Under the pieces are notes generated by a model. It ran no database searches. It saw only the letters and a program-made list of their open reading frames with translations, and was not told where the DNA came from. A stretch of 64,000 nucleotides of DNA, taken from assembly GCA_036405175.1 (NCBI GenBank), contig DASWYC010000002.1, forward strand, positions 123,429 to 187,428, written 5' to 3'. Both the position numbers and the translations under genes were made by a program. This document shows, in pieces, positions 9,117 through 12,074 of the stretch. Source of the DNA: Minisyncoccota bacterium (GTDB lineage Bacteria; Patescibacteriota; Minisyncoccia; Phycocordibacterales; UBA1006). Numbering within the stretch: the first letter of the stretch is position 1; each line of letters starts with the position of its first letter.

Positions 9117-12074
9117 ATGAAGCAGGAATTTGACCCGAAAGCGTTCGAGAAAAAATGGCAGGATTACTGGCAAGAAAACGGCACCTACTCAACCAATTTT
9201 GAATCATCAAAACCAAAGAAATATATTCTGGATATGTTTCCCTATCCATCAGGGGCAGGACTCCATGTAGGACATCCTCGTGGATATATTGGAACGGATG
9301 TGTACTCACGTTTCCAACGCATGAAAGGGTTTGAAGTGCTTCACCCTATGGGATTTGATGCGTTTGGTCTGCCGGCAGAAGAGTATGCACTCAAAATGAA
9401 AACAACACCGCAGCTTTCGGTGTCACAAAATATTCAACGATATAAACAGCAGCTTGAAATTATGGGAGTTGATTACGATTGGTCAAACATGGTCTCAACG
9501 ACTGATGAGCAATTCTATAAATGGACACAGTGGATCTTTTTGGAGTGTTACAAAAAAGGACTCGCATATGAATCAAATGAACCGATCAACTGGTGTCCAA
9601 GTTGTAAGACGGGTCTTGCTAATGAAGATTTAAATAGTGATGGAACCTGTGAGCGCTGTGGAACGTTGGTTGAAAAAAAACCACTCAGACAGTGGGTATT
9701 AAAAATTACTGACTACGCAGATAAATTATTGACTGGACTTGATACACTTCCATTATGGCCGGACTTTGTTAAAGAATCGCAGCGCAATTGGATTGGAAAA
9801 AGTGAAGGAAGTGAATTTGTATTTAAATTAGTTGACGCAAACGGTAACGGGCTCGAAGAATCACTTACCGTATTTACTACACGTGCAGATACGTTGTTTG
9901 GGGTGACGTATGTGGTTGTTGCACCAGAACATGCATTGGTGACGAATAGTGCGATTGTAAATAAGCACGAAGTACTTGGCTATCAAGAATCTGCATTTAA
10001 GAAAAATGAAATTGAGCGTTCAAATCAAACTCTTGAAAAAACTGGCGTGAAAGTCGACGGTGTATTTGCCGTGCATCCTGCAACGGGTGAGCATATTCCG
10101 GTATATGTTGCTGATTATGTAATTGGATCATATGGAACGGGAGCCGTGATGGGTGTTCCTGCGCATGATGAACGTGATTTTGCGTTTGCAAAAAAATATA
10201 ACATTCCTGTTAAAAAGGTAGTATTTATTGAAAATGGTGATCGTCGTGAGAATGAAGAATTTAGAAATGGAGGTTGTGGTGTTATTTTTGATCCTGCCAC
10301 ACAAAAATATGCAGTAGCTAAGTGGAATGATGACGGGCGAGTATTGTTGTTTGCTGGAGGCGTTGATGATGGAGAAGATGTACACGATGGAGTATTAAGA
10401 GAAGTAAAAGAAGAAAGTGGTCTGTATGATATTAAGCACTTTGAATGGGTTGATACGGCTTACGCTCACTACTTTAATAAAGCGAAAAATGTAAATCGTG
10501 TTGCACGTGCTGAGTGCTATTTGGCTATTCTTAATTCTGCCGATGCGCAAGAAGTTCATCGGGAGCCTCATGAGAATTTTGAGTTAGTATGGATGAGTGC
10601 CCAAGAAATCTTAAATCATTGGATTGAAAAAAATGATTCAGGCTTACATCACTACATTCATTTCTTTAAGCAGGCGGTTGCTCGAGCTATTGAACTTGGT
10701 CATGATGCCGTGTCCTCTTCAAAAGTTTTTGCGGCAAACGCATTTTGTGATGATGGAATAGTTGAATTAGAATCAGGCGTAAATGGAATTACGTCTGAAG
10801 AAGCTCGCATAAAAATTACCGAACAATTTGGAAAGAAAGTTGTTAATTATAAAATTCGTGATTGGACATTTTCTCGTCAGCGTTATTGGGGTGAACCAAT
10901 TCCTCTTGTGTTTGACGCTAATCATAAAGCATATCCACTTCATATGAGTGAGCTTCCAGTAACACTTCCGAACGTTGAATTTTACGAGCCAACAGGAACC
11001 GGAGAATCGCCACTTGCGAACATTTCTGAATGGATGAATGTTGAAGGATATGTAGCCGAAGATGGGTCTGTGAAAACCATTAAAGAAGGAGAGTCTGCAC
11101 CCACAGGTGTAGCGGTTCAAAAGTTTACACGTGAATCAAACACCATGCCAGGATGGGCAGGTTCATCGTGGTATTACATCCGCTATATTGATATGAATAA
11201 TGACAATGAATTTATCAGCAAAGAGCGCGAACAAAAATGGTTGCCGGTTGATATGTATGTTGGTGGTGTTGAGCACGCAACACGTCACCTTATCTATGCA
11301 CGCTTTTGGCATAAAGTACTCTTTGATCTTGGATTTGTTCACACCGAAGAACCATTTACCGTTTTGAAAAACCAAGGACTCATTATGGCAAGCGATGGTC
11401 GCAAGATGAGTAAGCGTTGGGCGAATGTGGTAAATCCGGATGACGTAATTGCAATGTTCGGAGCTGATGCGTTCCGCATGTTTGAGCTCTTTATTGCACC
11501 ATTTGATCAAACAACACCGTGGCAAGATGATGGCGTAGTGGGAACCCGCCGATTCCTTGAACGTGTGCACAAATTAATGATTGCTGATCATAAAGAAGGG
11601 GAAGAGTCTGCAGAAGTGCTTAAAGCGCTCCATAAATCAATTAAGAAACTCACCGACGGTATTGAAAATTTTGCATTCAACACGTGCGTTTCTGATTTGA
11701 TGATTACCTTGAAGGTGCTTGAAAAACAGGAAGATGGGGTAACTGTTGAGGCTAAAAAAATCTTTGCACAGTTGTTGGCACCAATGGCACCACATGCAAC
11801 CGAAGAATGGTGGCGTATGTTGGGTGAAGAAACATCAATTCACAATAGTGCATGGCCTCAGTATGATGAGAAGTATCTTGTTGATGATGAAATGACTATT
11901 GCAGTCCAGATTAACGGAAAAGTTCGTGCGACCGTAGTCATTGCTGCTGATGCAGATGAAGCTGCGGTGCGTGAATTAGTATATGCACAAGAAGCGGTTC
12001 AAAAATATACTACAGGGGTTGAGATTAAGAAGGAAATGTATATTCCAGGAAAGATTTATACGATTGTAATCTAA
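9117..12074 (+). CDS. leuS: leucyl-tRNA synthetase carrying an inserted Nudix hydrolase domain
   Basis: [16 protein letters not shown] (HIGH), [38 protein letters not shown], KMSKR (KMSKS). At 985 aa it is ~130 aa longer than typical. The extra segment contains Nudix box [23 protein letters not shown]. Confidence 0.9.
   Translation: [985 protein letters not shown]

Follow-up and report, generated by a model that had tools for sequence, protein, structure and literature searches.

A Nudix domain nested in the editing domain of a Paceibacteria leucyl-tRNA synthetase behaves as an exchangeable cassette

The leuS gene and its insert

The DNA stretch analyzed here, referred to as the window in its full length of 64,000 nt (contig DASWYC010000002.1), stems from a bacterium of the Paceibacteria (Patescibacteria/candidate phyla radiation, CPR) and contains the gene leuS, which encodes a leucyl-tRNA synthetase (LeuRS) with a complete Nudix hydrolase domain inside connective peptide 1 (CP1), the editing domain of the enzyme. 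Aminoacyl-tRNA synthetases rank among the most conserved proteins, and in bacteria they seldom acquire new catalytic domains. In the LeuRS of this lineage, a Nudix module in the CP1 loop is common, and in evolution it behaves as an exchangeable cassette, which was repeatedly replaced, lost or duplicated. This recurrent exchange is the most unexpected aspect of the architecture. The features of the gene are as follows:

9117–12074, + strand: leuS, bacterial-type LeuRS of 985 aa and host of the insert (TIGR00396, Pfam, alignment to Thermus thermophilus LeuRS)
9264–9275, + strand: HIGH motif (HVGH, aa 50–53) of the aminoacylation site, read from the sequence
9783–10223, + strand: N-terminal part of the CP1 editing domain (aa 223–369), by PF13603
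9876–9893, + strand: T-rich motif TTRADT (aa 254–259) of CP1, from the sequence and alignment A2
10164–10178, + strand: HDERD editing motif (aa 350–354) of CP1, from the sequence and alignment A2
10197–10826, + strand: tract with a separate evolutionary history (recombinational replacement relative to locus L004, protein P0084), by nucleotide identity, synonymous divergence and fourfold sites
10224–10739, + strand: Nudix cassette (aa 370–541, 172 aa) replacing a 13-residue CP1 loop (T. thermophilus 363–375), by alignment to 1H3N
10356–10424, + strand: Nudix box (aa 414–436), the metal-binding catalytic helix, fitting GX5EX7REUXEEXGU exactly at every position
10599–10739, + strand: C-terminal helical extension of the cassette (helices aa 495–504 and 508–526, then a linker to CP1), from the secondary structure of the models
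10740–10856, + strand: C-terminal remainder of CP1 and return to the catalytic core (aa 542–580, to the RDW motif), aligning to T. thermophilus from residue 376
11403–11417, + strand: KMSKS motif (KMSKR, aa 763–767), from the sequence and alignment A2

The whole protein matches the bacterial model TIGR00396 (leuS_bact) with 944.8 bits (cut-off 548.4) in two stretches with the insert between them, and the Pfam families tRNA-synt_1, tRNA-synt_1_2 and Anticodon_1 cover the class I core and the anticodon-binding part. T. thermophilus LeuRS (1H3N) is matched with E = 6e-184. A full-length AlphaFold2 (AF2) model reached a predicted local distance difference test score (pLDDT) of 91.7 and a predicted template modelling score (pTM) of 0.84, with values of 83–98 in the blocks of the insert. 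No second leuS was found in the window. In comparison to canonical LeuRS (T. thermophilus 1H3N/2BYT; Escherichia coli 4AQ7), the window protein keeps the same core, the HIGH and KMSKS motifs, the T-rich and HDxRD motifs of CP1 and the anticodon-binding and C-terminal domains, but features a 172-aa Nudix domain for the 13-residue loop 363–375 and lacks the leucine-specific domain. In alignment A2, which comprises 91 LeuRS sequences and was used to assess motif invariance, H50, G52, H53, K763, S765 and K766 of the synthetic site are invariant, as are T254, T255, R256, D258, T259, H350, D351 and D354 of the editing site.

The leucine-specific domain, which precedes KMSKS in the LeuRS of E. coli and T. 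thermophilus, is not universal and no strict requirement of the family. Here, aa 758–764 span T. thermophilus residues 579–638, with residues ~580–637 gone. The domain is also missing from the clade consensus (window 11388–11420, aa 758–767).

According to the alignment with 1H3N, aa 3–369 correspond to T. thermophilus residues 2–362 and aa 542–758 to residues 376–579, the remainder being the insert. The site lies ~20 residues past the HDxRD motif, and the Nudix domain is thereby nested inside CP1, itself an insertion into the Rossmann fold. Consistently, the match of PF13603 (184.9 bits, aa 223–379) covers model positions 1–150 of 185 and then ends. The spacing from HDxRD to RDW amounts to 231 aa in the window LeuRS, compared with 66–76 aa in five insert-less relatives, and to 209–238 aa in all but a few of the 120 closest LeuRS, which are 43–57% identical and form a sample biased towards relatives of the window protein. 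A first-pass annotation of the window had quoted conserved motifs flanking an extra segment in a 985-aa leuS product, and these are present at aa 340–368 and aa 573–595. It had also described a perfect Nudix box at nt ~10356–10424, where indeed every consensus position fits. The extra segment is real as well, its size of 172 aa being slightly above the ~135–150 aa proposed.

Two checks suggested at that stage, a Pfam scan and a structure prediction, both came out in favor of a Nudix domain. PF00293 (NUDIX) matches at aa 409–505, reaching 38.6 bits when the full protein is scanned and 41.6 bits with the insert alone (gathering score 21.1), and the structure is predicted to be an autonomous Nudix fold, alone and within the full LeuRS. 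The insert-only model (aa 364–545, 80 homologs) reached a pLDDT of 91.9 and a pTM of 0.87; its topology is the Nudix-type strand-helix-strand core arranged in an alpha/beta/alpha sandwich, followed by C-terminal helices. Judged from these models, the Nudix fold of the insert is certain, and together with the exact box they identify the insert as a genuine, autonomously folding Nudix domain in a surface loop of CP1. By its motif, the module looks catalytically competent. The C-terminal extension is conserved in free-standing relatives of the module, in which H149 and L164 are invariant (alignment A1).

Intein or homing-endonuclease motifs and significant flanking repeats were searched for in the window insert, and none was found. 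A 16-nt inverted repeat with 81% complementarity (window 10181–10196/10727–10742) almost exactly flanks the insert, which is probably due to chance, given the seed length and the AT-richness. Hallmarks of mobile elements at the insert were consequently dismissed, with short repeats only being present.

Exchange, distribution and selection of the module

The nearest relative of the window protein is P0084, encoded at locus L004, where synteny with the window is conserved. Both proteins are 98% identical over aa 1–360 and 89–92% identical over aa 571–985, with 57% identity over aa 364–545. Overall, body identity amounts to 96–97% and insert identity to 57–60%. At the nucleotide level, the genes agree at about 90% of positions, falling to 54–72% in nt 10197–10826. 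The synonymous divergence (dS) of the LeuRS body is 0.52–0.85, that of the insert 2.3 or saturated. Among fourfold sites of conserved codons, the identical fraction is 0.71 and 0.60 in the two parts of the body and 0.37 in the insert (Fisher p = 0.001). Since selection on the protein cannot cause raised synonymous divergence, the tract has a separate history, i.e., it was replaced by recombination. Rapid divergence in place as the origin of this mosaic is ruled out by the synonymous and fourfold data together with the bimodal identities among close pairs described below, and an alignment artefact behind the low insert identities is ruled out by pairwise global alignments. In the window, no free-standing paralog was found that could have acted as gene-conversion donor.

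In the leuS gene of L004 (6001–8958; ENA ERZ27336856 NODE_574), codon 745 is an in-frame stop that divides the sequence into genes of 744 and 237 aa. At the ~5x coverage of the contig, either an error in sequencing or a true disruption of the gene could be the cause; apart from this, purifying selection on the body is strong.

The same pattern recurs throughout the sample. In the 27 pairs whose LeuRS bodies share at least 85% identity, the insert identity is at least 0.8 in 11 and below 0.6 in 16, with none between, and a control segment of the body (aa 600–770) never falls below 0.82 in the same pairs. More than one insert state was observed in 9 of the 15 groups of LeuRS sharing bodies of at least 85% identity. 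The edges of the exchanged segment are sharp in pairwise global alignments: P0110 and P0133, for example, are 88–100% identical in each 40-aa block outside residues 361–520 and 17–28% identical inside, and cassettes swapped between near-identical LeuRS share as little as 17–30% identity. P0085, which has the next-closest body (73% identical), has no insert. On a tentative neighbor-joining (NJ) tree of the bodies, the insert states (28 A-type, 86 B-type, 6 none) require 19 changes compared with a shuffled mean of 31, and on an NJ tree of the modules the cassettes of the window and P0084 tentatively belong to different sub-lineages. A-type and B-type inserts are ~26% identical to each other. The idea that they represent two unrelated Nudix families captured independently at the loop was softened by motifs outside the Nudix box which are common to both and therefore make them look like one diverging family.

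Regarding distribution, PF00293 is carried by roughly 105 of the 120 closest LeuRS according to precomputed annotation, and our own alignment placed an insert at this site in 114 of them and none in 6. By name, almost all belong to Paceibacterota, Pacebacteria, Vogelbacteria or Kaiserbacteria. When species-representative genomes were scanned with the alignment of the inserts, the module was found embedded in leuS in seven genomes (two Falkowbacteria, Jorgensenbacteria, Paceibacterota and others), plus one probable case in Gracilibacteria, and free-standing in about 54. The probable case is locus L069 (Candidatus Gracilibacteria JABFSX010000004.1), in which a Nudix match of 31% identity lies between LeuRS flanks; its frame is interrupted when read with the standard code, in line with the TGA recoding in Gracilibacteria. 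This match suggests that the architecture reaches beyond Paceibacteria. An exhaustive search against 1.84 billion representatives yielded 202 clusters at E ≤ 0.001. The 149 representatives listed besides P0104 comprise 63 LeuRS or LeuRS fragments, 69 short proteins and 17 other long proteins.

The architecture is thus not unique, as it is common among Patescibacteria LeuRS and one fusion is found in UniProt (A0A2H0RKY1, named “Leucine--tRNA ligase”). The earlier impression that it had not been described still holds insofar as full-text literature searches turned up no publication on Nudix domains in LeuRS or other synthetases of this lineage, and no curated model of leuS with Nudix surfaced in the NCBIfam scan. 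It is present in public databases, but unremarked. A synthetase with an accessory catalytic domain is an already known kind: NCBIfam NF040702, an isoleucine--tRNA ligase with an N-acetyltransferase domain, likewise combines a class I synthetase with an unrelated small-enzyme domain. Synthetase and passenger are, however, different, and in the present case the passenger is nested in the editing domain and exchangeable.

The free-standing Nudix proteins of Paceibacteria (P0001–P0082, ~173 aa) are 46–57% identical to the window insert and colinear with its whole length, and share with the inserts the extra-box motifs GIKRENEExRxGG, HY.N..KNVNR and EEHEKF.L.W. Unlike the leuS-nested insert, they are encoded by separate genes in variable neighborhoods; in the sources they are called only “NUDIX hydrolase,” “MutT” or “YjhB.” Altogether, 82 proteins were recovered as free-standing, among which P0050 is probably a LeuRS fragment, and 81 group as a single clade within the A-type LeuRS inserts on the NJ module tree, a placement that is tentative. 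Around P0001 and P0061 (loci L005 and L006), genes of small hydrolases and of nucleotide metabolism (ASCH, GNAT, HIT and NYN; CYTH, adenylate kinase and HD) are located nearby, together with mobile-element genes encoding transposases and a TrwB-like ATPase. Some gene families of these neighborhoods also occur as LeuRS inserts.

In fact, LeuRS of this lineage accommodates additional modules at a minimum of three sites. As many as three Nudix stretches per LeuRS were observed, two of which precede the editing domain (P0212, P0238, P0348, P0094). Other passengers include a Ser-hydrolase/abhydrolase (P0216, P0207, P0130), HAD at the third site of P0130, a giant LeuRS of 1564 aa, as well as ASCH (P0181), Ham1 (P0195, P0345) and DUF559 endonuclease-like modules (P0233, P0273). 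The further sites in giant LeuRS lie before the editing domain and after the re-entry into the core, and the module at site 1 is present or absent between the close relatives P0134 and P0162.

The same Nudix type also resides in other hosts. In RNase PH (P0227, P0241, P0244, P0256), a copy with 28–35% identity across ~165 aa sits between the RNase_PH and RNase_PH_C domains, as seen for example at L087 5001–6548, and seems to be unannotated. The host differs from LeuRS, but is likewise a housekeeping enzyme acting on tRNA 3′ ends with a nested Nudix domain. Moreover, the module is fused to GrpE (P0332) and to GNAT-PepA/M17 aminopeptidase (P0221).

Selection on the module is reflected by its catalytic residues. 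Across 89 LeuRS inserts, the positions of the Nudix box are conserved as G1 in 88, E7 in 84, R15 in 82, E16 in 89, E19 in 87, E20 in 89 and G22 in 79, and the same residues are invariant in all 82 proteins recovered as free-standing. The ratio of non-synonymous to synonymous divergence (dN/dS) of the insert between window and L004 is 0.15, with dS saturated. For P0087 and P0088, whose cassettes are 94% identical, the insert shows dN 0.034, dS 1.57 and dN/dS 0.022, compared with dN 0.13–0.15 in the LeuRS body, i.e., the insert is more constrained than the body. The near-invariance of catalytic residues and the dN/dS of 0.02–0.15 therefore place the module under strong purifying selection, which argues for a retained function.

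A tethered hydrolase and alternative roles

Weighing these observations, we favor, with moderate confidence, an autonomous and selected Nudix hydrolase which sits in a permissive loop of CP1 and is exchanged as a cassette. The hydrolase would be tethered to an essential, constitutively made protein, which could provide co-expression or co-localization, and the conserved LeuRS flanks probably serve as homology arms for the exchange of cassettes. Concerning catalytic activity and substrate type, we infer that the module probably cleaves a nucleoside-diphosphate-linked small molecule, of the house-cleaning or dinucleotide-polyphosphate type, and probably performs no integral step of leucylation or editing.

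Several points weigh against this interpretation. Among the hosts, LeuRS predominates by a wide margin (63 of the 149 listed representatives), and a Nudix family that persistently reuses one loop could have a specific tie to the editing domain or the tRNA 3′ end. A few cassettes, e.g., that of P0133, have degenerate boxes. The trees are neighbor-joining trees with short internal branches, built on the biased sample mentioned above. Finally, the best structural neighbors of the insert are at most 22% identical to it and span ADP-ribose, dinucleoside polyphosphate (ApnA), NDP-sugar and RNA-decapping enzymes. They include RppH, AtNUDT7 and the Aquifex Ap4A hydrolase, interleaved with uncharacterized Nudix proteins, and a profile search of PDB sequences gave AtNUDT7 (1.9e-6) and NUDT6 (1e-5). 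An assignment of the substrate by sequence or structure was set aside, as no match exceeded 22% identity.

The first-pass annotation had proposed that the module hydrolyzes Ap4A, other dinucleoside polyphosphates or mis-activated intermediates released from the LeuRS active site, and would thereby couple production and removal in cis. We regard this as unlikely, while ranking it ahead of the alternatives considered below. E. coli RppH and the ApnA hydrolases (Aquifex 3I7U, T. thermophilus Ndx1, NUDT2 type) are only 16–19% identical to the insert, and ADP-ribose, NDP-sugar and uncharacterized Nudix proteins match it as well as or better. With 21.7 bits for the whole protein and 25.8 bits for the insert, the RppH-family models of NCBIfam (PRK00714) remain far below their cut-off of 118. 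Hydrolysis of Ap4A by the module is possible, although no subfamily signature supports it. Aminoacyl-adenylates, in turn, have no pyrophosphate bond and are therefore no typical Nudix substrates. The module is moreover dispensable for LeuRS, as seen from insert-less relatives, appears as a free-standing clade in the sequence tree, is swapped freely for cassettes 17–30% identical, shares its protein with esterase, HAD, ASCH and endonuclease-like modules and is also hosted in the unrelated RNase PH, GrpE and PepA fusions. The free-standing copies, the insert-less LeuRS, the interchangeable cassettes and the unrelated co-hosted hydrolases consequently leave a dedicated partnership in cis unsupported and point to a module that is loosely coupled to its host and open to exchange.

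A further option is an enzyme for tRNA or RNA ends, in which the Nudix domain, tethered to a domain binding the tRNA 3′ end, strips a pyrophosphate-linked group from such ends. This could be an RppH-like decapping or the repair of a modified CCA end, possibly in conflicts with toxins or phages. As LeuRS is the dominant host and RNase PH also binds tRNA 3′ ends, a role related to tRNA ends or ApnA is conceivable; RppH is among the best fold matches, and the fast turnover of cassettes resembles loci under diversifying selection. On the other hand, neither the GrpE and aminopeptidase hosts nor the many free-standing copies agree with such a role, the resemblance in fold is generic and no RNA-binding extension was identified in the module. 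No PADLOC-DB defense model matched the insert, the free-standing P0001 or two genes downstream of leuS (the EEP neighbor and a 169-aa ORF, see below), PHROG gave weak generic Nudix matches only and viral contigs held no full-length relative of the module, but only matches of 33–48 residues centered on the Nudix box. A defense or phage link was rejected on these grounds, and we consider a function at RNA ends improbable. Similarly doubtful is a more specific version, in which the CP1-loop Nudix is a fast-evolving, shuffled module acting on the tRNA 3′ or 5′ end or on a nucleotide signal, with arms-race turnover and the same job in RNase PH. An example would be the removal of a pyrophosphate or nucleotidyl adduct put on tRNA by toxins or phages.

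The cassettes could also be mainly selfish or neutral, spreading by recombination in a permissive loop without benefit for the cell, or play a structural role only. The patchy presence, absence and type of inserts on the LeuRS tree, the degenerate state of some Nudix boxes and the DUF559 endonuclease-like modules at a neighboring site in relatives are in line with this. We nevertheless hold it to be a poor explanation, considering the nearly invariant catalytic residues, the low dN/dS (in one pair with the insert more constrained than the LeuRS body) and a window insert free of intein or homing-endonuclease motifs and significant flanking repeats.

An assembly chimera or frameshift artefact, finally, is practically excluded: leuS is one continuous ORF without frameshift or stop, more than 100 homologs carry an insert at the same site, and the identical protein (cluster P0083) occurs on five contigs, the three places shown being three different sequencing runs, and in the metagenome-assembled genome entry HEY1041267.1 of GenBank (Candidatus Paceibacterota).

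In this major uncultivated lineage, LeuRS has come to host one to three Nudix domains, along with other small hydrolases, in and around the proofreading domain. If the favored view of a tethered passenger is true, minimal genomes would pack house-cleaning enzymes into essential genes, and the lineage would offer a natural example of the tolerance of CP1 to domain insertion. If the Nudix domain is instead coupled to LeuRS or tRNA chemistry, it would constitute a new quality-control or repair activity in translation. LeuRS also serves as a phylogenetic marker, and alignments of LeuRS as well as its annotation can be distorted by mosaic inserts; in its GenBank entry, the window protein has no name more specific than “class I tRNA ligase family protein.”

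Neighboring genes in the window

One gene adjoins leuS without being part of the feature described above:

12078–12779, + strand: EEP-family phosphoesterase gene (PF03372, 51.4 bits)

The earlier observation that this gene starts 3 nt after the leuS stop is correct (12078 vs. 12074), but the adjacency is limited to the same or very close strains. It was seen in L001–L004 only, with a GNAT gene intervening in L004, and was not found in seven other leuS-Nudix loci (L007, L008, L009, L012, L014, L016, L053), of which L008 has nearly no downstream sequence. A functional link between leuS and its EEP neighbor was set aside, as the adjacency is not conserved. Between the EEP gene and an EVE gene, the window contains an ORF of 169 aa (12844–13353) with no match in Pfam, PADLOC or PHROG. 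This ORF is not found in the syntenic L004, which instead has the GNAT gene between leuS and EEP, and small genes downstream of leuS therefore vary.

Further away, a second class I synthetase of 734 aa is encoded on the − strand (56426–58627), which is of the Val/Ile type according to Pfam and carries neither Nudix nor any extra domain. An ORF of 1514 aa (20285–24829) features EF-hand and dockerin-type calcium-binding repeats around aa 510–630, is otherwise unannotated and probably encodes a large surface protein.

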